This document shows, in pieces, positions 1 through 6,229 of a DNA stretch of 6,229 nucleotides. Origin of the DNA: a virus (lineage: Duplodnaviria > Heunggongvirae > Uroviricota > Caudoviricetes); the IMG/VR virus record IMGVR_UViG_2534681999_000014, positions 1 to 6,229 of that record. One strand, given 5' to 3'. The notes below the pieces were generated by a model, which was given only the letters and a program-made list of their open reading frames with translations, did no database searches and was not told the DNA's origin. The position numbers and the translations under genes were made by a program. How positions within the stretch are numbered: position 1 is the stretch's first letter; each line of letters opens with the position of its first letter.

Positions 1-142
1 ATTTTGTGATGCAGTGCCTGGTGCCTCCAGGTGACGTTAACCAGTTAACAATTAACGCCGGATACAGAGAATCCACCCATAACACTGTTTTTGGTTTTAA
101 CTGTTCCGCGTGCGCTTAGCCGCATTCACCGCATCACAAAAT
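1..142. repeat. Perfect 12-bp inverted repeat pair, ATTTTGTGATGC (1-12) and GCATCACAAAAT (131-142), flanking about 118 bp
   Basis: Seen directly: 131-142 is the exact reverse complement of 1-12. The left arm touches the window edge, so it may extend beyond the window. Function unknown. Confidence 0.5.
36..57. repeat. Three GTTAAC-core palindromic motifs at 8-bp spacing (GTTAAC 36-41, GTTAAC 44-49, TTAACG 53-57)
   Basis: Seen directly in ACGTTAACCAGTTAACAATTAACGCC. Regular spacing of a self-complementary hexamer suggests a protein-binding array; this is inference only. Confidence 0.35.
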
Positions 143-232
143 TCACTTTAAAAAGGGCGGCAGAGCAGTCACGGAGTAAAACTGATACCGCCAAATGTCA
201 CCAGAAAATTGATAACAGAGGGCGTTGTAGCG

Positions 233-269
233 GGGTTGTCACTTAAGCGTATGGTCAACCTGACAACCC
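233..269. other. Hairpin: 9-bp perfect inverted repeat GGGTTGTCA / TGACAACCC around a 19-nt loop that contains CTTAAG
   Basis: Seen directly: 233-241 and 261-269 are exact reverse complements. Followed by GGTGCATTTTCTGG, which is moderately T-rich. Could be a terminator of an upstream plus-strand gene or a regulatory structure; not resolved. Confidence 0.3.
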
Positions 270-461
270 GGTGCATTTTCTGGAGCAATGGAGGAAACCC
301 CAGCCATACTTACCGCCGCGCCATTTCGCGGACTGCCACAACCGGAAGCGCACGGTCGACGAAAATTTAACGATAGGCTATCTATGAACCAGCAACCTCG
401 CCGTGTGCTTTCGTGTTGTGTGCCTGCTTTTTACCACGTCAGGCGAGGTGGTCCCCGTTAT

Positions 462-507
462 TCCCCAACAACAAGGATCTTGTTAATCTGGATATCCCCA
501 ACAACAA
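462..507 (+). repeat. 13-bp direct repeat TCCCCAACAACAA x2 (462-474 and 495-507) upstream of the 546-1037 gene; a small palindrome AACAAG-gat-CTTGTT (470-484) with a GATC site lies between the copies
   Basis: Seen directly. Position about 40-85 bp upstream of the probable ATG at 546 suggests promoter or leader regulatory sites; inference. Confidence 0.35.
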
Positions 508-545
508 TAAGAGTATTGAATGTGATCGCTGAATTAACGGCAGCA

Positions 546-1037
546 ATGACGGCTATTCGTGAAACCGCCCAGATTGCAAAACTAATGAACGAGGCAAAAA
601 CTCAAGCTGAAGTAAATGCGGCTATTGGTGAACTGAACTCAAAGCTTGCATCTATTCAGCGCGAATGCGTGTCTCTCGTTGAGCTGGTGGGCACTTATCA
701 AGAAATAAATGCTTCTCTCAAAGCTAAAATTGCAGAATTTGAAAACTTTGAGGCTCAGACGGAAGGTTATATCCTTAGCCAACTTGAGTCGGGAACTTTT
801 GTGTACTCGAAGGAGGTAACCGTGAACGGCGGCAGCATAATCATGCATCTTTGTCCAAAATGTTTTGGACAAAAGATAGTATCGATACTTCAGCCATTCC
901 CGGTTAGAGAATATGAATTTTTTCATAAAAGCAGGTGCCTGTACTGTGAAGATCAGTTTCTTATGAATAAAAATCCGGATTACGTATCACCTCCATCTAT
1001 TGAAGAGTTGGCCAGAAAACTGAACGGCAATCTGTAG
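546..1037 (+). CDS. Hypothetical protein, 163 aa: N-terminal predicted coiled-coil, C-terminal CxxC-X24-CxxC zinc-ribbon-like motif; AT-rich cargo gene convergent with the leftward prophage genes
   Basis: Part of the 288-1037 ORF in the track. The first 86 codons (288-545) are R/P-rich, more GC-rich and not protein-like, so the start is placed at ATG 546 (MTAIRETAQIAKLMNEAK...). In-frame TTG 520 and GTG 526 are alternatives; the SD is weak in all cases. Cys motifs CPKC and CLYC seen in the translation. The body of the gene is visibly more AT-rich than neighbouring genes. No family recognised from memory. Confidence 0.5.
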   Translation: MTAIRETAQIAKLMNEAKTQAEVNAAIGELNSKLASIQRECVSLVELVGTYQEINASLKAKIAEFENFEAQTEGYILSQLESGTFVYSKEVTVNGGSIIMHLCPKCFGQKIVSILQPFPVREYEFFHKSRCLYCEDQFLMNKNPDYVSPPSIEELARKLNGNL

Positions 1038-1151
1038 ATTTTTACTGTTATGGATATCCAGATTGTTAAAGAGCATGCCGGATGCTTGCTTGTGTCCGGC
1101 GCGTGTGCACCACTCTCCCCCCGTGGAGGATTCCTTAATTACCAGATTTCA

Positions 1152-1304
1152 TTAGTCAGAGTTTCTTGCTAACCAGCGACGCGCGCCAGATTCGGTTTTA
1201 AACGTTTTGCTTTTGGTATACGTCATCGCGGTGAACGTGCCGTCCTGGTTGGGAAACACGCCGTACACCAGAGATTCGTTGTTGCCAAGATCGATAGTAT
1301 CCAT
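1152..1304 (-). CDS. Small prophage protein, 50 aa, DUF1391 family (YdaF/YdfA-like)
   Basis: The track ORF 1152-1343 begins with TTG; the internal ATG at 1304 is preceded by GAGG with a 6-nt spacer (GGGAAATGAGGTCAACATG on the minus strand), so the start is placed at 1304. Translation MDTIDLGNNESLVYGVFPNQDGTFTAMTYTKSKTFKTESGARRWLARNSD matches my memory of the small Rac/Qin prophage proteins YdaF/YdfA. Stop TAA at 1154-1152. Confidence 0.6.
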   Translation of the reverse strand: MDTIDLGNNESLVYGVFPNQDGTFTAMTYTKSKTFKTESGARRWLARNSD

Positions 1305-1490
1305 GTTGACCTCATTTCCCCTTAACGCCGGGTAGCGGAACAAAAACCTGCTGCATCGTTATTAAAGTTGAACCCTGCCGTCATGTTCATACGCCTCGGG
1401 CTGGCTACTTACCCCCTGACCACTGCTTGGTAACTCGAAGTATTGCCCGGCGTTCTGTGGGGCGGGGTGGGTGGTTGGTGTATGTAATCT

Positions 1491-1530
1491 ACAATAAAAA
1501 ACTGTTTTTGTGTCAACAGTTTTTAATTGT
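1491..1530. promoter_or_regulatory. OL-like operator: two 15-bp ACA-N9-TGT sites (ACAATAAAAAACTGT 1491-1505; ACAGTTTTTAATTGT 1516-1530) with a TTGACA -35-like hexamer on the minus strand in the spacer (plus coordinates 1511-1516)
   Basis: Seen directly: the first site is identical to the site at 2526-2540 and the second differs by 1 nt from 2550-2564. The location leftward of the repressor operon and upstream of the leftward DUF1391 gene matches the lambda OL/pL position. Confidence 0.6.
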
Positions 1531-1540
1531 TGTTTTGGGC

Positions 1541-1563
1541 AAAAAAATCCCTCGAAAGAGGGA
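1541..1563 (-). terminator. Rho-independent terminator for the minus-strand repressor-antitoxin-toxin operon
   Basis: Minus strand reads TCCCTC-TTTC-GAGGGA followed by TTTTTTT: a perfect 6-bp stem (1548-1553 / 1558-1563) with a 4-nt loop and a 7-U tract (1541-1547), starting 18 nt after the ParE stop codon (1584-1582). Confidence 0.55.
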
Positions 1564-1581
1564 GTATGAAAATTGTTCAAC

Positions 1582-1869
1582 TCAGATAGAGAAGGGAAAT
1601 TGTCGCCGAGAATGTGTCACGCTTACAATCTCAATGCTTGAAGCAGCTACTCTGTACAGGATTATGTAGTTAGGGTGGGTCACGATCTCTCTCAATCCAG
1701 AAACCCGTTCGCTTGGTGGATATAAGTACGGATGCTCAGATAGAGGTAATACCGATGTTTCAATGCGTATTTTTAGTCTACGTGCTGCCGGTGGGTTCTC
1801 CTTGGCGATGTAAGTTATGATCTGGCGCAAATCATCGCGAGCAGACGGTAGCCATAAAATGGGTAACAT
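1582..1869 (-). CDS. parE2: Type II toxin, ParE/RelE superfamily (ParE2-like)
   Basis: 95-aa ORF MLPILWLPSARDDLRQIITYIAKENPPAARRL...YIILYRVAASSIEIVSVTHSRRQ shows the ParE pattern (L.W.P.A..DL..I..YI...NP.AA; Y.I.YRV....IEI..V.H..R). Its ATG (1869-1867) overlaps the upstream antitoxin TAA (1871-1869) by 1 nt, the classic translationally coupled antitoxin-toxin order. The gene symbol is from memory of the E. coli O157 paaR2-paaA2-parE2 system and was not verified by search. Confidence 0.85.
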   Translation of the reverse strand: MLPILWLPSARDDLRQIITYIAKENPPAARRLKIRIETSVLPLSEHPYLYPPSERVSGLREIVTHPNYIILYRVAASSIEIVSVTHSRRQFPFSI

Positions 1870-2060
1870 TACTCGCTCTTGTTAGTTACAGCAATTTGAG
1901 CAATAAGATTTTCCATTTCAGCCATTACCTCGTCATGTGGAATTGCGGGGCGAGTGTCTGCAAGGCTTGACGTTACTTTAGTGCGCAACCATTCGTTGTA
2001 ACTGTTTTCTTGTTCGGTAGTTTCGAATTCTGAAACTATCGGAGAAAGGGCTGTACCCAT
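1869..2060 (-). CDS. paaA2: Antitoxin of the ParE toxin, 63 aa, PaaA2-like
   Basis: ORF MGTALSPIVSEFETTEQENSYNEWLRTKVTSSLADTRPAIPHDEVMAEMENLIAQIAVTNKSE lies immediately upstream of and overlaps the ParE gene. SD AGGAG sits 7 nt upstream of the ATG (2060-2058). Size and the motifs SPxVSEFET...ENSYNEWLR.KV..SLAD.RPAIPHDEV match what I recall of PaaA2; recalled, not searched. Confidence 0.75.
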   Translation of the reverse strand: MGTALSPIVSEFETTEQENSYNEWLRTKVTSSLADTRPAIPHDEVMAEMENLIAQIAVTNKSE

Positions 2061-2087
2061 GGCATAACTCCTCTTCTTGTACTGTGG

Positions 2088-2489
2088 TCACGCCCGGCGG
2101 CTTTTTTGTGCCGCCAGCCACCTAGCAATGGTTTCTTCCATTGATTTTTTCTTGTCTTTGATTTCTTGAAGCATTTTTTCTTGGTCTTCCTCAGGAAACG
2201 CACTAAAAGCTTGGAGCAGTTCGCGTTGGCGAGGACCAATTTTCATCGTGTCAGGGGTGAAAATTTGCTCACACTCTTCAGGAGGCAATAAAAACCAATG
2301 CAATGGATGCCCTGAAACCTCAACCAGTTTATCCAAACTTGAGGCTTTAGGTGTAGCCTTACCGCTGACCCATTGTTGAACAGTTTGTTGTGTCACACCA
2401 ATTCTACGGGCAAGCTCAGCCTGGCTCCATCCAGTTTCCTGAAGAAGCTTGCTGATTCTGTACATAGATACTTCTAGGGCGCTCATCAT
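2088..2489 (-). CDS. paaR2: HTH XRE-family transcriptional repressor: CI-like lysogeny repressor (RacR/DicA-like architecture) and probable third component (PaaR2-like) of the toxin-antitoxin operon
   Basis: 133-aa ORF with an N-terminal helix-turn-helix (SQAELARRIGVTQQTVQQWVSG) and a C-terminal region (ELLQAFSAFPEEDQEKMLQEIKDK) resembling the DicA-type C-terminus. Divergent from the Cro-like gene across a multi-site operator; 27 nt upstream of the antitoxin on the same strand. No SD upstream of ATG 2489, so the mRNA may be leaderless; an alternative start is M9 at 2465. Confidence 0.8.
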   Translation of the reverse strand: MMSALEVSMYRISKLLQETGWSQAELARRIGVTQQTVQQWVSGKATPKASSLDKLVEVSGHPLHWFLLPPEECEQIFTPDTMKIGPRQRELLQAFSAFPEEDQEKMLQEIKDKKKSMEETIARWLAAQKSRRA

Positions 2490-2500
2490 TATTCAATTTT

Positions 2501-2564
2501 ACAGGTAAATACTGTTAAAAGCATCACAATAAAAAACTGTTGATTGCATACAGTTTTTTATTGT
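2501..2564. promoter_or_regulatory. OR-like tripartite operator: 15-bp ACA-N9-TGT sites at 2501-2515 (ACAGGTAAATACTGT, weakest), 2526-2540 (ACAATAAAAAACTGT) and 2550-2564 (ACAGTTTTTTATTGT), centres 24-25 bp apart; divergent promoters embedded
   Basis: Seen directly: 2526-2540 and 2550-2564 are perfect reverse complements of each other. A -35-like TTGATT (2540-2545) lies in the spacer between them on the plus strand, and TATAGT (2575-2580) is a strong -10 candidate upstream of the ydaS-like SD GAGGAGG (2587-2593). On the minus strand, TAAAAT (plus 2496-2501) lies 6 nt from the repressor ATG. Confidence 0.65.
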
Positions 2565-2597
2565 AGGCTTTGCTTATAGTTTTTAGAGGAGGGCAAA

Positions 2598-2870
2598 ATG
2601 CTAGATAGCACTCGCGAAAAAATTAGGCAGAAATACACTCAGGCTGAAATAGGTCGTTATATGGGGGTCGCTCAACAGACTGTTTGGCAATGGTTTAGCT
2701 TTGGCGTTCCCCCAAAGCAGGTAATTCCGTTATGCCAACTAATGAAGTGGGAAGTTACCCCGCATGAAATCCGCCCAGATATTTATCCTAACCCAACCGA
2801 CGGTTTACCTGTTGGATGTAAGGTTAACACATCAAATGCGCCGGAGTTGATTCATGAAAATCAAGCATGA
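2598..2870 (+). CDS. ydaS: Cro-like small DNA-binding protein, YdaS family
   Basis: 90-aa ORF with strong SD GAGGAGG 4 nt upstream. HTH region AEIGRYMGVAQQTVWQWF followed by VIPLCQLMKWEVTPHEIRPDIYP resembles E. coli Rac YdaS as I recall it (…PAIERATRGEVLCEELRPDIDW). Divergent from the repressor. Confidence 0.75.
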   Translation: MLDSTREKIRQKYTQAEIGRYMGVAQQTVWQWFSFGVPPKQVIPLCQLMKWEVTPHEIRPDIYPNPTDGLPVGCKVNTSNAPELIHENQA

Positions 2871-3279
2871 ACACATCCGCATGGCGATGAATGCCTGGGC
2901 GCATCCGGACGGCGAAAAAGTACCGGCTGCGAAAATTACCAAAGCGTATTTCGAGCTGGGAATGACGTTCCCGGAACTGTATGACGACAGCCATCCGGAA
3001 GCCATGGCTCGCAATACTCAGAAAATTTTCCGCTGGGTGGAGAAAGACACTCCTGATGCGGTTAAAAAAATTCAGGCGTTGTTACCAGCGATCGAAAAAG
3101 CGATGCCGCCTCCGCTGGTGGCCCGAATGCGCAGCCACAGTTCCGCTTATTTTCGGGAGTTGGTAGAGACGAAGGAACGGCTGGTGAAAGATATTGATGA
3201 TTTCGTTGCATCAGCGATCGTTCTGTTCGATCAGATGAATCGTGGTGGCCCGGCAGGAAACACTCTGGCTGTGCATTAA
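2854..3279 (+). CDS. ydaT: YdaT-family protein (CII-like functional analog)
   Basis: 141-aa ORF starting MKIKHEHI and ending ...VH, with a central KIQALLPAI segment; these match the start, end and central motif of E. coli YdaT as I recall it. SD GGAG 7 nt upstream of the ATG. The start overlaps the ydaS-like 3' end by 17 nt. Confidence 0.75.
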   Translation: MKIKHEHIRMAMNAWAHPDGEKVPAAKITKAYFELGMTFPELYDDSHPEAMARNTQKIFRWVEKDTPDAVKKIQALLPAIEKAMPPPLVARMRSHSSAYFRELVETKERLVKDIDDFVASAIVLFDQMNRGGPAGNTLAVH

Positions 3280-3292
3280 TTGGGTAATAAAT

Positions 3293-3802
3293 ATGAGTAA
3301 TGACAAAAAATTGACACTGAGCGTTTACGAAAACAGTCCGCACATCTGGCGTGGCGGTTTATCTGATGTGGAGCTGGCAGAGTGGTTGATACATAAAGCT
3401 AATGCGCTGCTCTGGCGTTTGTCAGCCAGAGAACAGCGCAAGGAAACCAGAATAAAGCTGGCTGATGCAGAAGCGTGTGCCGGGCTTATTGAGGATTATA
3501 CAAATCTTGGTATTTCTTCAGCAGAGAGTGATCCCATTCAGCCTCTGAGCAGGGAGTCAATCCAGCACGCTGGTTGTATGGCACATCTTGTAACTGCTCG
3601 TCAACATGAGGTGGGTATTGGATCACTTCCGGCGGGATATTCGCTGATTCCAGAGCTGGTTGAAGCAAGAAAATCAGTTCAGAAAAAGAGAGATGACGCA
3701 CTTCAATTATTGAGAGAGCACTATGGCGCGATACCAGAATGCGAACAGCGTCGATACCCTGAAGGTTATGAATGGATGCAGTCTCTTTTTGAAGTTCGCT
3801 AA
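3293..3802 (+). CDS. Hypothetical protein, 169 aa, unknown function, inserted between the ydaT-like and replication genes
   Basis: Track ORF 3242-3802. The first ATG is at 3293 (MSNDKKLTLSVYENSPHIWRGG...), 14 nt after the ydaT-like stop; the region 3242-3292 overlaps the ydaT-like 3' end in another frame. Same orientation as the early-right operon. SD weak. No family recognised. Confidence 0.5.
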   Translation: MSNDKKLTLSVYENSPHIWRGGLSDVELAEWLIHKANALLWRLSAREQRKETRIKLADAEACAGLIEDYTNLGISSAESDPIQPLSRESIQHAGCMAHLVTARQHEVGIGSLPAGYSLIPELVEARKSVQKKRDDALQLLREHYGAIPECEQRRYPEGYEWMQSLFEVR

Positions 3803-4019
3803 TCAATATGTCGAGACGAAGGTATGTTTCGGCGCGCAGCCAGGCTCTGTAATCCGGGAGCATTTCGGGGCTGTTACACCAGCGGTTTGTTGCTGCAACA
3901 TTTAATACATGAGCCTGATAAAGGCTTTTCAAAAAATACATGTCGAACCTCCTCTGGTTCTGTCGATTGGGAACCACAGATTATATCCGGAGGAAGGTTC
4001 GGCACCAGATGAGGTAGCC

Positions 4020-5111
4020 ATGCGTGATTACGCAAAAGTTTCTCCGCGATTCTGGCTGGGAGAAACGGGGAGAGAACTTAGAAAGGCGGGTGCAGAAGCG
4101 CAAGTTGTTGCTTTTTACCTGATGACATCCCCTCACGCAAATATGCTGGGTTTGTATTACCTGCCAGTTTTATACCTTGCTCATGAAACCGGGCTTGGTC
4201 TGGAAGGGGCTTCAAAGGGGCTTAAAAGGGCTGTTGAAGCTGGTTTTTGTAGCTATGACCATGATGCAGAGATGGTCTGGGTCCATGAAATGGCAGCCTG
4301 GCAGGTTGGGGAAACGTTGAAGCCTGGCGATAACCGTTGTGCAGGTGTCAGGAATGAGTATGCATCATTACCTGAAAACGCTTTTCTGTCAGTGTTTTAC
4401 GACAGATATAAAACGGATTTCCATCTGGATGTGAGGCGGAATAATAGCCGAAATTCGGTAAGGGGCTTCGAAGGGGCTTTTAAGGGGCTTCGAAGCCAAG
4501 AACAGGAACAGGAGCAGGAGAAAGAACAGGAACAGGACAAAAACACTATGGTTCATGGCAAAAAAAACACCACGAACCAGGCAGGGGATGTTCAGACCGT
4601 CAATCCTGGTCAGCCAGCAGGCACGACACCGGAAGCCGATTCGGGCGCTGTGCAGCAGGTGATGACCGCAGGGTCGGAGCAATCACACCAACTGCAGCAG
4701 CCTGAAGCCGATTCCGCCATTCAGCGGGAAGCCGATCGGGTAGTCCCGGAAAGCACCGGGCAGTCTGTGGGACGAGTGGATTATCCGGATGTGTTCGAAC
4801 AGGTCTGGCGGGAATACCCGTTGCGTGCTGGGGCAAACCCGAAGAAATCCGCTTTCAGTGCCTGGAAGGCCAGATTGCGCGAGGGGGTGCCACCAGAGAC
4901 CATGCTGGATGGTGTGAGGCGTTACGCGAGATACCTGGCGGCGACCGGGAAAGCGGGAACGGAATTTGTTCAGCGAGCGACGACGTTTTTTGGGCCGGAC
5001 CGGAATTTTGAAAACCCCTGGTTGCTCCCGGTAAGCGGCACGAACAACCAGCGTTGTGTGAATCATATTTCTGAACCGGATACCGAAATTCCGCCGGGAT
5101 TCAGGGGGTGA
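4020..5111 (+). CDS. Phage replication initiation protein (lambda O-like / YdaU-position), with an internal Gln/Glu-rich linker and a conserved phage C-terminal domain
   Basis: Track ORF 3909-5111. The ATG at 4020 has SD GAGG 5 nt upstream, while ATG 3909 has none, so the start is placed at 4020 (MRDYAKVSPRFWLGETGRELRKAG...). The C-terminal segment DVFEQVWREYPLRAGANPKKSAFSAWKARL...ATTFFGPDRNFENPW resembles the conserved C-terminal domain of phage replication proteins (from memory). Position immediately upstream of the DnaC-like gene. Contains DNA iterons (see repeat features). Confidence 0.7.
   Translation: MRDYAKVSPRFWLGETGRELRKAGAEAQVVAFYLMTSPHANMLGLYYLPVLYLAHETGLGLEGASKGLKRAVEAGFCSYDHDAEMVWVHEMAAWQVGETLKPGDNRCAGVRNEYASLPENAFLSVFYDRYKTDFHLDVRRNNSRNSVRGFEGAFKGLRSQEQEQEQEKEQEQDKNTMVHGKKNTTNQAGDVQTVNPGQPAGTTPEADSGAVQQVMTAGSEQSHQLQQPEADSAIQREADRVVPESTGQSVGRVDYPDVFEQVWREYPLRAGANPKKSAFSAWKARLREGVPPETMLDGVRRYARYLAATGKAGTEFVQRATTFFGPDRNFENPWLLPVSGTNNQRCVNHISEPDTEIPPGFRG
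4204..4233. repeat. Iteron cluster A: AAGGGGCTT at 4204-4212 and 4215-4223 plus a degenerate copy (AAAGGGCTG, 4225-4233), 11-bp period
   Basis: Seen directly in GAAGGGGCTTCAAAGGGGCTTAAAAGGGCTG. Copies are read in three different reading frames (EGA / KGL / KRA), arguing for DNA-level rather than protein-level selection. Confidence 0.45.
4460..4490. repeat. Iteron cluster B: three perfect AAGGGGCTT copies at 4460-4468, 4471-4479 and 4482-4490 (exact 11-bp period), with palindromic CTTCGAAG cores; candidate replication origin inside the initiator gene
   Basis: Seen directly in TAAGGGGCTTCGAAGGGGCTTTTAAGGGGCTTCGAAGCC. The three copies are translated in three frames (RGF / EGA / KGL). Immediately followed by the linker-coding repeat and an A-rich stretch (4539-4570). 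Lambda ori is likewise a set of iterons inside the O gene. Confidence 0.5.
4500..4541 (+). repeat. In-frame hexamer array (GARCAG)n encoding the QEQEQEQEKEQEQD low-complexity linker
   Basis: Seen directly: GAACAG x2, GAGCAG, GAGAAA, GAACAG x2, GACAAA. The period is a multiple of 3 and is read in one frame, so this is a protein-level flexible acidic linker between the N- and C-terminal domains. Confidence 0.6.
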
Positions 5112-5117
5112 TGTGGC

Positions 5118-5864
5118 ATGAAAAACATTGCGGCAGCCGGGGTTCTTGAACGTATTCGCAGACTTGCACCACAGGCGTCGGTTCCACCGTACCGGACGGT
5201 GGAGGAGTGGCGGGAATGGCAACTTGCTGAAGGACGAAAACGCAGCGAGGAGATTAACCGCCAGAATCACCAGTTGCGGGTGGAAAAAATCCTGAATCGT
5301 TCGGGCATCCAGCCTCTGCACAGCAAATGCTCGTTTGCGAATTATCAGGTGCAGAACGACGGGCAAAAATACGCGCTGAGCCAGGCCAAATCCATAGCTG
5401 ACGAACTGATGACCGGGTGCACGAATTTTGTGTTCAGCGGTAAAACCGGCACCGGGAAAAATCACCTTGCAGCGGCGATGGGTAACCGGCTGATGGCGAA
5501 GGGGCGCAGCGTGATTATCGTCACCGTGTCTGATGTCATGAGCGTGTTGCATGACAGCTACGACAACGGCAAATCCGGGGAAAAATTTTTACAGGAGCTT
5601 TGCAGTGTTGATTTGCTGGTCCTGGATGAAATAGGCGTTCAGCGGGAGACGAAAAACGAGCAGGTGGTATTACACCAGATAATTGATCGCCGGACAGCAT
5701 CACTGTGCAGTGTCGGGATGTTAACAAACCTGAATCATGCCGCAATGAGTACACTTCTTGGTGAGAGGATTATGGACCGCATGACCATGAACGGTGGTCG
5801 ATGGGTGACGTTTAACTGGGATAGCTGGCGTCCAAATGTCAGCAATATGAGGGTTGTGAAGTAA
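5118..5864 (+). CDS. DnaC-like helicase loader, AAA+ ATPase of the DnaC/IstB family (lambda P functional analog, YdaV-position)
   Basis: 248-aa ORF with Walker A FSGKTGTGKNHLAAAMG and Walker B DLLVLDEIG. Start ATG 5118 follows the initiator stop (5109-5111) by 6 nt, with a G-rich SD (5103-5108). Confidence 0.9.
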   Translation: MKNIAAAGVLERIRRLAPQASVPPYRTVEEWREWQLAEGRKRSEEINRQNHQLRVEKILNRSGIQPLHSKCSFANYQVQNDGQKYALSQAKSIADELMTGCTNFVFSGKTGTGKNHLAAAMGNRLMAKGRSVIIVTVSDVMSVLHDSYDNGKSGEKFLQELCSVDLLVLDEIGVQRETKNEQVVLHQIIDRRTASLCSVGMLTNLNHAAMSTLLGERIMDRMTMNGGRWVTFNWDSWRPNVSNMRVVK

Positions 5865-5885
5865 TTTTGTCCGGAGGAAATTTTA

Positions 5886-6229
5886 ATGGAAACCGTATCT
5901 GACGCACTGAAAGCACTGAAAAAAGCCTCTTCACATGTGGTGGCAGCTCGCCTTGGAATCAGTCGTGAAGAGGCTGTCAACGAGCTGTGGGAACTCAAAA
6001 TAAATGGCGTCGTTGATAAAACTGGTCACACCTGGTTTCTGGCTGGCGAAGGTGAATCCCGGGTAACCGAAGAGCGGCCAGTAAAATCTGAAGCACAGGA
6101 TATGCTGACCGGGGAGGTCGAACAAAAAGTTACCGCAGACATGATGATTGAGTTTATCGGTCAGGATGGGGCTAAAACGTGTGAGGAACTGGCGGGTAAG
6201 TTCGGTGTCAGTACTCGCAAGGTTGCTTC
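5886..6229 (+). CDS. Partial CDS (5' end, runs off the window): hypothetical prophage protein with an N-terminal winged-helix-like segment, possibly YdaW/DUF1627-like
   Basis: Not in the supplied track because it has no stop inside the window. I translated it by hand from ATG 5886 (METVSDALKALKKASSHVVAARLGISREEAVNELWELKINGVVDKTGHTWFLAGEGE...) and found no stop codon through 6229. SD GGAGG (5873-5877) 8 nt upstream. Family assignment is a weak recollection. Confidence 0.6.
   Translation, partial: METVSDALKALKKASSHVVAARLGISREEAVNELWELKINGVVDKTGHTWFLAGEGESRVTEERPVKSEAQDMLTGEVEQKVTADMMIEFIGQDGAKTCEELAGKFGVSTRKVA

Follow-up and report, generated by a model that had tools for sequence, protein, structure and literature searches.

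The paaR1-paaA1-parE1 operon in the immunity region of an Escherichia coli Sp4/CP-933M-type lambdoid prophage

Introduction

A described paralogue of the locus reported here is paaR2-paaA2-parE2 of E. coli O157:H7 (prophage CP-933P/Sp12), whose lambda-like wiring is established by experiment (Jurenas et al. 2021 mBio, PMC8630535; Prolic-Kalinsek et al. 2023, PMC9986795). Binding of the repressor to OR and OL, bistability and activation by YdaT have been demonstrated for this paralogue, as have the equivalent PL/OL of CP-933P, a leaderless paaR2 mRNA (by 5' RACE) and ClpAP/ClpXP-dependent post-segregational killing, and transcription of the toxin-antitoxin (TA) genes was detected in both switch states. 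The motif bound by YdaT, TTGATT-N6-AATCAA, was defined by footprinting, and the same paper says explicitly that the TA pair takes the place of rexA and rexB (PMC9986795). PaaR2 is reported to lack a RecA-sensitive/S24 peptidase domain. O157 ParE2, the closest characterised homologue of the toxin described below, is reported neither to bind GyrA59 nor to inhibit gyrase, so that the usual ParE mechanism cannot be assumed here.

A review (PMC4803016), which covers Hallez 2010, describes ParE of both O157 paralogues as toxic and as neutralised only by the cognate PaaA, states that the antitoxins of the two systems do not cross-neutralise, and reports co-transcription from a promoter upstream of paaR for the family.

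Results

Identity of the locus

The window is the whole stretch of 6,229 nucleotides that was analysed (IMG/VR record IMGVR_UViG_2534681999_000014, positions 1 to 6,229). [quoted passage not shown] ParE, PaaA, the repressor, YdaS and YdaT are 100% identical at the protein level to ECs_1067-1071 of Sp4 in E. coli O157:H7 Sakai: the toxin (ECs_1067), the antitoxin (ECs_1068) and the repressor (ECs_1069) each differ by 0 aa, and the Cro-like protein matches ECs_1070 (100%). The DNA is 99.8% identical to Sakai Sp4 from position 1159 to the end of the window at 6229. Because Sp4 is CP-933M, on which the literature places a homologue of paaR2-paaA2-parE2, this identity assigns the operon to paaR1-paaA1-parE1. 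The name was reportedly given by Hallez et al. 2010 (Mol Microbiol 76:719). The alternative spelling "paaR1-paaA1-parE3" in one paper leaves a small uncertainty in the exact gene name.

A sequence-only reading of this DNA had taken the locus for a paaR2-paaA2-parE2-type system, probably described rather than novel. The system is indeed known, and its assignment to the three-component family stands, the locus itself being the Sp4/CP-933M paralogue. We rejected paaR2-paaA2-parE2 itself (Sp12/CP-933P of Sakai, L005 48660-49523), since its TA proteins are just 67-70% identical to those found here, its repressor N-terminal domain, Cro and operators are unrelated, and the repressor starts with MMSALE here versus MQKKE in PaaR2. 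To the left of about 1250 (in ydfA), the window follows a RacR-type prophage instead of Sakai Sp4, and the partner of the PL operon differs; the window is a recombinant of two prophage types.

Gene content of the operon

The genes of the immunity region are as follows.

2088..2489, minus strand: paaR1-type CI-like repressor, 133 aa; N-terminal Cro/C1-type HTH and PaaR/DicA-type C-terminal domain
1869..2060, minus strand: paaA1-type antitoxin, 63 aa; Pfam PF21217, PDB 3ZBE
1582..1869, minus strand: parE1-type toxin, 95 aa; Pfam PF05016, PDB 5CW7_B
2598..2870, plus strand: Cro-like YdaS-family regulator, 90 aa, divergent from the repressor; Pfam YdaS_toxin, E = 8e-10
2854..3279, plus strand: CII-like YdaT, 141 aa; Pfam YdaT_toxin, E = 1.2e-9

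In the list of open reading frames of the window, repressor, antitoxin and toxin genes are all co-oriented on the minus strand. The repressor stop codon (2088-2090) and the antitoxin ATG, which ends at 2060, leave a 27-nt gap (2061-2087), exactly as had been read from the sequence, with a strong Shine-Dalgarno sequence (AAGAGGAG) 7 nt ahead of the antitoxin ATG. The antitoxin TAA and the toxin ATG have base 1869 in common (TAATG on the minus strand), giving the 1-nt overlap noted earlier.

The expected ParE-family membership of the toxin was borne out by Pfam PF05016 ParE_toxin (E = 2.9e-17; 63.5 bits for a cut-off of 23), by the crystallised ParE2 (PDB 5CW7_B, E = 3e-36) and by 67% identity to Sp12 ParE2 over 92 aa; weak matches to PDB 3KXE, 5CEG and 6X0A were also obtained. 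The antitoxin belongs to the PaaA family, as judged from Pfam PF21217 PaaA2 (E = 5.6e-19; 68.3 bits for a cut-off of 27), PDB 3ZBE (PaaA2, E = 1.4e-20) and 70% identity to Sp12 PaaA2 over residues 1-56, the C-terminal tail being diverged. The Pfam search found no DNA-binding domain in it, with HTH, RHH and AbrB matches all absent.

The repressor matches HTH_3 at its N terminus (E = 2.3e-12) and Phage_CI_repr (E = 7.4e-5), among solved structures it is nearest to the 434 repressor (E = 3e-5), and it scores 51.5 bits against the NCBIfam DicA subfamily, under the cut-off of that model. Its identity to PaaR2 is 42% over residues 37-133 (E = 2e-20), and the C-terminal ~45 aa (residues ~87-133) align with PaaR2 along LLQxFSAFPEE...ARWxAAQKxRRA. 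The N-terminal domain has no detectable similarity to that of PaaR2, and the Pfam search returned no Peptidase_S24 match for the 133-aa protein. The E-values for ParE_toxin, PaaA2 and HTH_3 indicate that the three frames are real genes and not chance. The locus thus combines a ParE toxin, an overlapping non-DNA-binding PaaA and an upstream PaaR-type HTH gene, the make-up by which PaaR-PaaA-ParE systems are recognized.

On the other strand, the Cro-like protein matches phrog_35, annotated as a transcriptional repressor (E = 9e-29), and YdaT matches the CII-like activators of phrog_163 (E = 4e-46) and is 86% identical to CP-933P/Sp12 YdaT. RefSeq labels the products of the operon "helix-turn-helix domain-containing protein", "RelB family antitoxin" (or "hypothetical protein") and "RelE/ParE family toxin", and calls YdaT a "toxin"; these labels miss known biology.

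Operators, promoters and terminator

Candidate regulatory elements were located around the operon.

2501..2564, no strand assigned: OR-like operator; three ACAG-N7-CTGT sites at 2501-2515, 2526-2540 and 2550-2564
2490..2501, minus strand: candidate PRM-like promoter; -10 TAAAAT (2501 to 2496), 6 nt before the A of the repressor ATG (2489)
2540..2569, plus strand: candidate PR-like promoter of the Cro-like gene; TTGATT, 18 nt, TAGGCT, overlapped by sites 2 and 3
2847..2864, no strand assigned: YdaT operator TTGATT-N6-AATCAA, exact match, at the ydaS/ydaT junction; OM/PRE equivalent
1548..1563, minus strand: intrinsic-terminator-like hairpin; stem TCCCTC/GAGGGA, loop TTTC, then T7, tail to about 1539
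1486..1535, minus strand: OL/PL-like region; two ACAG-N7-CTGT sites (1491-1505, 1516-1530) flanking a leftward promoter

The layout of lambda is present as sequence: the repressor and Cro-like genes are divergent, and the OR-like sites recur at a distant OL-like promoter. The centres of the three OR-like sites are 25 and 24 bp apart, and the last two sites form a perfect 15+9+15 palindrome. With at most one mismatch allowed, ACAG-N7-CTGT occurs seven times in the window, five of these at OR and OL, for an expectation of 2.1 +/- 1.5; seven matches were reached in 0 of 200 shuffles. We predict from this pattern that ACAG-N7-CTGT is the operator for the repressor of this immunity type. The HTH repressor facing a Cro-like gene across a three-site operator had already been seen in the sequence-only reading, and the domain match and the site pattern agree with it. 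Since the sites are wholly unlike the GTTTAGTAA repeats of the PaaR2 operator, operators co-vary with the repressor N-terminal domain. The PL-like promoter (TTGACA at 1516 to 1511, 19-nt spacer, TAGATT at 1491 to 1486) reads into ydfA, dicF and dicB.

The hexamers predicted for PR and PRM are both weak; a promoter-consensus scan reported neither. The PRM -35 is poor and a Shine-Dalgarno sequence is absent upstream of the repressor gene, whose mRNA is predicted to be leaderless, by analogy with paaR2. The YdaT motif is found once in the window, for 0.04 matches expected.

The terminator-like hairpin lies 18 nt beyond the toxin stop, ahead of OL where an intrinsic terminator had been proposed, and its stability is modest (6 bp, -9.9 kcal/mol, z = -1.4); with so short a hairpin, some transcripts might continue into the PL operon. 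At the equivalent position, a third allele has a different hairpin and T-run (L009 2442 to 2425). Between the repressor and the antitoxin, our scan of the window detected neither a terminator-like nor a promoter-like element on the operon strand, which goes against separate transcripts ended by a terminator in that interval.

Other candidates were set aside. Positions 2096-2115, within the 3' end of the repressor reading frame, were considered as an attenuator or processing hairpin; they do fold, but no T-run follows, Sp12 keeps the hairpin in part, the third allele does not have it, and its bases are those of the conserved AAQKxRRA codons. An antisense promoter (1600-1629, plus strand) and a plus-strand terminator-like site (2126-2143) are within chance expectation for the scan. 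The conserved PL leader (1308-1480, minus strand), considered as a structured RNA, folds no better than shuffles (z = +0.64) and has no Rfam match.

Distribution and alleles

Of 5426 complete E. coli genomes, 588 contain the cassette and 509 have this immunity type. With a threshold of 99% identity, the number of genomes with the cassette is 437. One deletion variant was seen, a genome in which 351 bp of the cassette are missing. Diverged alleles (80-90% DNA identity) have intact frames and keep the 1-nt overlap. Among 50,697 records of sequenced phages, a homologue is encoded in a single one, Escherichia phage Evi, with a ParE2-type allele in the same gene order. The E. coli repressors joined to the cassette are of at least three DNA-binding types: the 133-aa protein described here, the 123-aa PaaR2 and a 166-aa protein.

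Discussion

Our observations are very probably best explained by a repressor-coupled paaR1-paaA1-parE1 TA operon that stabilises the prophage immunity region. All regulatory steps at this locus are those we infer from sequence and from analogy with the paralogue. The DicA/CI-like repressor would bind ACAG-N7-CTGT at three sites in OR and two in OL, and thereby shut off rightward transcription of ydaS-ydaT and then of the replication genes, as well as the leftward ydfA-dicF-dicB operon. A weak repressor promoter would yield a probably leaderless mRNA running through paaA and parE to the terminator just ahead of OL, so that the TA pair, in the slot of lambda rexA-rexB, would be made whenever the repressor is made. 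YdaT acting at TTGATT-N6-AATCAA would provide a second, PRE-like entry into the operon. PaaA, small and non-DNA-binding, would wrap and neutralise ParE; upon loss or silencing of the locus, protease-labile PaaA would decay and ParE would kill the cell or block its growth, the net effect being an addiction that stabilises the immunity region.

Co-transcription and coupling to the lysogenic state we infer in the same way. The anatomy is compatible with co-transcription of the three genes, given the 27-nt gap, its Shine-Dalgarno sequence and a single terminator placed after parE. Because TA transcription was detected in both switch states of the paralogue, expression of the pair is not strictly tied to lysogeny. 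The same observation could be read as favouring separate transcription units, with paaA-parE as a classical two-gene TA pair driven by a promoter situated within the 3' end of the repressor gene, and a repressor that controls the prophage only. Partial repression of the operon by the PaaA2-ParE2 complex alone, mentioned in PMC4803016, and the GC hairpin at 2096-2115 would also fit such an arrangement. We nevertheless consider it improbable, because the gap holds a Shine-Dalgarno sequence and no promoter- or terminator-like element on the operon strand, the hairpin is without T-run and missing from the third allele, PaaA is without DNA-binding domain, and PMC4803016 reports the family as co-transcribed from upstream of paaR.

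The position of the TA pair, between the repressor and the OL/PL-like site, is the rexA/rexB slot recognized in the sequence-only reading, and PMC9986795 concurs for the paralogue. One could accordingly see in the cassette, above all, a module for excluding phages by abortive infection, standing in for lambda RexAB in function as well as position, in which shut-off of host or prophage expression by a superinfecting phage would free ParE. The slot and the repressor-coupled expression are shared with lambda, and PHROGs phage families exist for both proteins (phrog_2455 and phrog_3936). This role seems unlikely to us, although it is the least improbable of the alternatives considered, given that toxin and antitoxin match 0 PADLOC defence families (the repressor having just generic HTH matches), that plasmid stabilisation through post-segregational killing is the sole phenotype described for the paralogue, whose ParE2 had no detectable activity in either state of the switch, and that a homologue occurs in just 1 of 50,697 phage records. 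Even less credit can be given to a decaying remnant with a functionless TA pair in a cryptic prophage. Sp4/CP-933M-type prophages are mostly defective, one genome has the 351-bp deletion and the window itself is recombinant between two prophage types, but the three open reading frames are undisrupted, with 100% identity in hundreds of genomes, diverged alleles retain their frames and the 1-nt overlap, and both O157 systems are expressed in their natural host according to deletion studies cited in reviews (PMC4803016).

The operon is real and already known: the system was named in 2010, crystal structures of the paralogue are available, and papers from 2021-2023 already contain both lambda-like regulation and the "replaces rexAB" reading. 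The additions made here are small, and comprise the predicted operators (three in OR, two in OL), the exact YdaT site, and evidence for a cassette and repressor C-terminal domain joined to at least three DNA-binding specificities. The value of the operon lies in a clean annotation. The comparison with hetero-immune Sp12 yields testable operator predictions for the less-studied paralogue. The three immunity types, the diverged TA alleles and the one deletion variant also offer a natural experiment on whether this TA pair stabilises prophage immunity regions.

A more tentative possibility is that the conserved unit consists of the repressor C-terminal (oligomerisation) domain together with paaA and parE, and that in E. 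coli this unit has been combined with three or more unrelated DNA-binding domains, immunity being swapped by recombination at the linker between the repressor domains. If this were true, each DNA-binding domain would come with its own Cro partner and operators while the TA cassette would be carried along, not selected against, and the published view of the TA pair as guarding the immunity region from replacement would need qualifying. The PaaR C-terminal domain might then be tied functionally to PaaA-ParE, and the predicted ACAG-N7-CTGT operators of this immunity type would be new as well.

Comparison with known systems

With paaR2-paaA2-parE2 and ydaS-ydaT of CP-933P/Sp12, the locus shares gene order, orientation, the repressor-to-OL/PL slot and an identical YdaT site, TTGATT-N6-AATCAA; neither repressor has an S24 autocleavage domain. 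The repressor/Cro intergenic region is 97 bp in Sp12 versus 108 bp here, the sequences 3' of parE are unlike, Sp12 YdaS has no detectable similarity to the Cro-like YdaS found here, and the operators are of the GTTTAGTAA type there versus ACAG-N7-CTGT here. Between Sp4 and Sp12, operators, Cro and repressor N-terminal domain thus change together, whereas the TA genes, the repressor C-terminal domain and YdaT are homologous. The differences from Sp12 predict hetero-immunity.

As in lambda cI-rexA-rexB, the repressor is divergent from cro over a three-site operator, co-oriented accessory genes lie between the repressor and OL/PL and are followed by a terminator, and a CII-type second promoter and a leaderless repressor mRNA are predicted. 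However, CI, RexA and RexB have no sequence relationship to the proteins described here, the RecA-sensitive peptidase domain of CI is missing, and the accessory genes form the Rex exclusion system in lambda but a type II TA pair at this locus.

The repressor is homologous over its full length to DicA of the K-12 Qin DicA-DicC system (28% identity, spanning both domains), and the leftward operon downstream, ydfA-...-dicF-dicB, is the same. In K-12 Qin, dicA is followed directly by ydfA, with 166 nt between them and no TA cassette, which shows the cassette to be an insert in this slot. Canonical ParD-ParE systems (RK2, Vibrio cholerae, Caulobacter) have in common with this locus the ParE/RelE-fold toxin (PF05016), whereas the antitoxin here is a PaaA without RHH DNA-binding domain and regulation is left to a third gene.

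Organization of the repressor-antitoxin-toxin operon

Three minus-strand genes encoding a repressor, an antitoxin and a toxin occupy window positions 1582 to 2489, and the ORF list and the sequence reproduced exactly the coordinates given to them by the sequence-only reading.

Main features of the window (coordinates, strand, description)
155-206, minus: full-length DicF sRNA, leftward operon (Rfam RF00039, 77 bits, E = 2.8e-16)
1152-1307, minus: ydfA (DUF1391), left of the cassette
1491-1505 and 1516-1530: two OL-like ACAG-N7-CTGT sites
1563->1548, minus (operon strand): hairpin followed by T7, 18 nt past the toxin stop
1582-1869, minus: toxin ORF, 95 aa
1869-2060, minus: antitoxin ORF, 63 aa
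2088-2489, minus: repressor ORF, 133 aa
2501-2515 (centre 2508): OR-like ACAG-N7-CTGT site 1, over the PRM-like promoter
2526-2540 (centre 2533): OR-like site 2, directly upstream of the PRM-like -35
2550-2564 (centre 2557): OR-like site 3, covering the spacer and -10 of a predicted rightward promoter (TTGATT/TAGGCT)

The claimed 27-nt spacing between repressor and antitoxin corresponds to the gap 2061-2087, in which AAGAGGAG lies 7 nt ahead of the antitoxin ATG, and the claimed 1-nt overlap to base 1869, which belongs both to the TAA of the antitoxin and to the ATG of the toxin. An independent terminator between repressor and antitoxin had been named as evidence against the operon, and the terminator scan detected no such element on the operon strand in that interval. 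The terminator proposed to close the operon at 1563->1548 is plausible but modest given its folding energy (-9.9 kcal/mol, z = -1.4 against shuffles). A GGCGGC-N8-GCCGCC hairpin without T-run at 2096-2115, in the final repressor codons (AAQKSRRA), is partly kept in Sp12 (CP-933P) of E. coli O157:H7 Sakai and gone from an allele with a 166-aa repressor; it is probably a by-product of conserved repressor codons.

The protein assignments were also borne out by similarity searches. The 95-aa product is a ParE-family toxin (Pfam ParE_toxin, E = 2.9e-17; crystallised ParE2 of E. coli O157, 5CW7_B, E = 3e-36), and the 63-aa product is a relative of PaaA2 (Pfam PaaA2, E = 5.6e-19; PaaA2 chains of 3ZBE and 5CW7, E = 1.4e-20). 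The CI-like 133-aa repressor has a Cro/C1-type HTH (HTH_3, E = 2.3e-12), with the 434 repressor as closest solved structure and the DicA subfamily as top, under cut-off, NCBIfam match. A domain search found no S24 peptidase domain in this protein, and RecA-mediated induction would therefore not be expected. Across a 108-bp intergenic region, the divergent 90-aa ORF starting at 2598 on the opposite strand encodes the anticipated Cro-like protein, of the YdaS family, and is accompanied by a YdaT-family CII-like gene. The family labels 'toxin YdaT' and 'YdaS toxin' persist in Pfam and RefSeq for 2854-3279 (+) and 2598-2870 (+); published work has shown YdaT to be a CII-like and YdaS a Cro-like regulator, rather than members of a toxin-antitoxin pair.

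A Qin/Rac-like lambdoid prophage has its immunity region here, with genes for a DnaD-like loader and a DnaC-like ATPase farther right and ydfA and DicF as leftward neighbours. A sub-threshold STnc100-like match at 1-153 (-) is truncated by the window end. On the strand opposite the PL operon, 522-1037 (+) encodes a 171-aa protein with two CxxC pairs (phrog_1244, E = 5e-57) and stands where Sakai Sp4 has ydfB/ydfC-region genes.

Predicted operators and promoters

The predicted three-site operator between the repressor and the Cro-like gene was recovered as three ACAG-N7-CTGT matches at 2501-2564. Together with the two OL-like sites these account for five of the seven matches in the window (2.1 expected; no shuffle reached seven), and a repeat search revealed up to 17 identical bases common to the OR and OL copies. 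The sites are good candidates for repressor and Cro binding because operators at both OR and OL change in step with the DNA-binding domain. The repressor strand has a -10-like TAAAAT (2501->2496) whose end lies six bases ahead of the A of the ATG (2489), the start lacks a Shine-Dalgarno sequence and the -35 is poor, a geometry which predicts a leaderless, activator-dependent PRM; leaderless paaR2 was shown for the paralogue by 5' RACE and N-terminal sequencing. The YdaT recognition sequence established by footprinting, TTGATT-N6-AATCAA (PMC9986795), has a single exact match in the window (0.04 expected) at 2847-2864, at the ydaS/ydaT junction, making a PRE-like second route into the operon likely here too. 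A perfect TTGACA between the two OL sites points left towards ydfA, dicF and dicB. Conservation of the PL transcript leader, 1315-1475 (-), is high against Sp4- and Sp12-type prophages and lower against RacR-type ones, although these prophages differ in repressors and operators; the leader has no Rfam match and folds no better than shuffles (z = +0.64).

Identity of the locus

Many E. coli O157:H7 chromosomes match positions 1340-2600 with 100% identity. The Sakai counterpart is ECs_1067-ECs_1071, within the annotated 'prophage Sp4, lambda-like phage' adjoining yccA; all five immunity proteins are identical and the DNA is 99.8% identical over 1159-6229. Sp4 is the Sakai equivalent of CP-933M, and the published paaR2-paaA2-parE2 resides elsewhere, in Sp12, at ECs_2279-2281 (48660-49523 of the Sakai stretch L005). 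The sequence-only reading of the operon as paaR2-paaA2-parE2 was thus right as to the kind of system, which is already known, and wrong as to the locus, which is the first paralogue, paaR1-paaA1-parE1, of Sp4/CP-933M. With this correction, the observation as a whole was confirmed and its interpretation supported. The locus identity is firm; a small uncertainty attaches to the gene name because one later paper spells the toxin name differently. What is left as new comprises the predicted operators of this immunity type and the comparison of modular repressors.

Compared with complete O157:H7 genomes, the window proves to be a mosaic of 1-1478 and 1159-6229, with a crossover at about 1240-1263 inside ydfA. 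The left part follows a RacR-type prophage integrated beside potC (98% over 1-1478, 100% over 420-1170) and the right part Sp4 (99.8%). None of the complete E. coli genomes of the collection is colinear with the whole window (best cover 88%), and the mosaic arose either by natural recombination between prophages within ydfA or through an assembly join.

Distribution and variants

In K-12 Qin, ydfA lies 166 nt past the gene for the homologous repressor DicA (28% identity across both domains) and there are no toxin-antitoxin genes between them, so the cassette is an insertion in the repressor-ydfA slot. It is present at >=80% coverage in 588 of 5426 complete E. coli genomes, 437 of them at >=99% identity and about 130 at 80-90%, representing diverged alleles; the window's immunity type occurs in 509 genomes. 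Two variant loci, L008 and L010, combine this immunity type with a toxin-antitoxin allele at 85% DNA identity. A third, L009, encodes a third repressor type, of 166 aa, which keeps the conserved C-terminal domain and is paired with a Cro partner of its own; the L009 toxin-antitoxin allele is at 80%, and a different hairpin and T-run occupies the same place past parE. In one genome, E. coli CAU16175 (L011), a 351-bp deletion removes most of paaA and parE (L011 2501-2566, equivalent to a deletion of window 1644-1994) and leaves the repressor unchanged, which shows that a single step suffices to lose the cassette.

The C-terminal ~45 aa of the repressor and paaA-parE form a conserved block (window 1582-2870; L005 48260-49523; L009 2457-3839). 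The N-terminal HTH domain attached to it is of at least three different kinds, in repressors of 133, 123 and 166 aa, and each kind comes with a separate Cro-like partner and separate operators. Only one of 50,697 phage records encodes a homologue: phage Evi, with a ParE2-type allele in unchanged gene order.

Proposed function and comparison with the Sp12 paralogue

Work on the paralogue has established that PaaR2 and YdaS bind within the intergenic region, where they repress both promoters, and also repress PL, that YdaT activates PRE, and that the locus is bistable, with no ParE2 activity detected in either stable state. That locus stabilises an unstable plasmid through ClpAP/ClpXP-dependent post-segregational killing. 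ParE2 is an inducer of SOS that colocalises with the nucleoid, and is reported neither to bind GyrA59 nor to inhibit gyrase. Since the two loci are homologous and share one anatomy, a paralogue-like mode of action is the best explanation for the window locus: the pair would be carried as passengers of the repressor operon, ParE would be neutralised by direct PaaA binding, and loss or silencing of the locus would free the toxin. Since the cassette occupies a Rex-like slot, phage exclusion is a reasonable alternative role, but it receives no PADLOC support and is unsupported by the literature examined on the system.

ParE is 67% identical to its Sp12 counterpart, YdaT 86%, and PaaA 70% in its N-terminal two-thirds, its tail having diverged. 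The repressor shares with PaaR2, which likewise lacks an S24 peptidase domain, only the C-terminal ~45 residues (ELLQxFSAFPEE...ARWxAAQKxRRA); protein comparison detected no similarity in the N-terminal DNA-binding domain or the Cro-like protein. At the DNA level, 1315-2153 (69%) and 2843-3279 (88%) are homologous, whereas roughly 2154-2842, which spans OR, the cro-like gene and the N-terminal domain of the repressor, is unrelated, a classical 'imm' substitution. As a control on locus mapping, a consensus scan found, at the PR and PL positions of Sp12, promoter-like TTGACT/TAAACT pairs, in agreement with the published -35 and -10 elements common to both CP-933P promoters. The operators differ along with the imm block, ACAG-N7-CTGT in the window and published GTTTAGTAA-type repeats, also seen in Sp12, in CP-933P.
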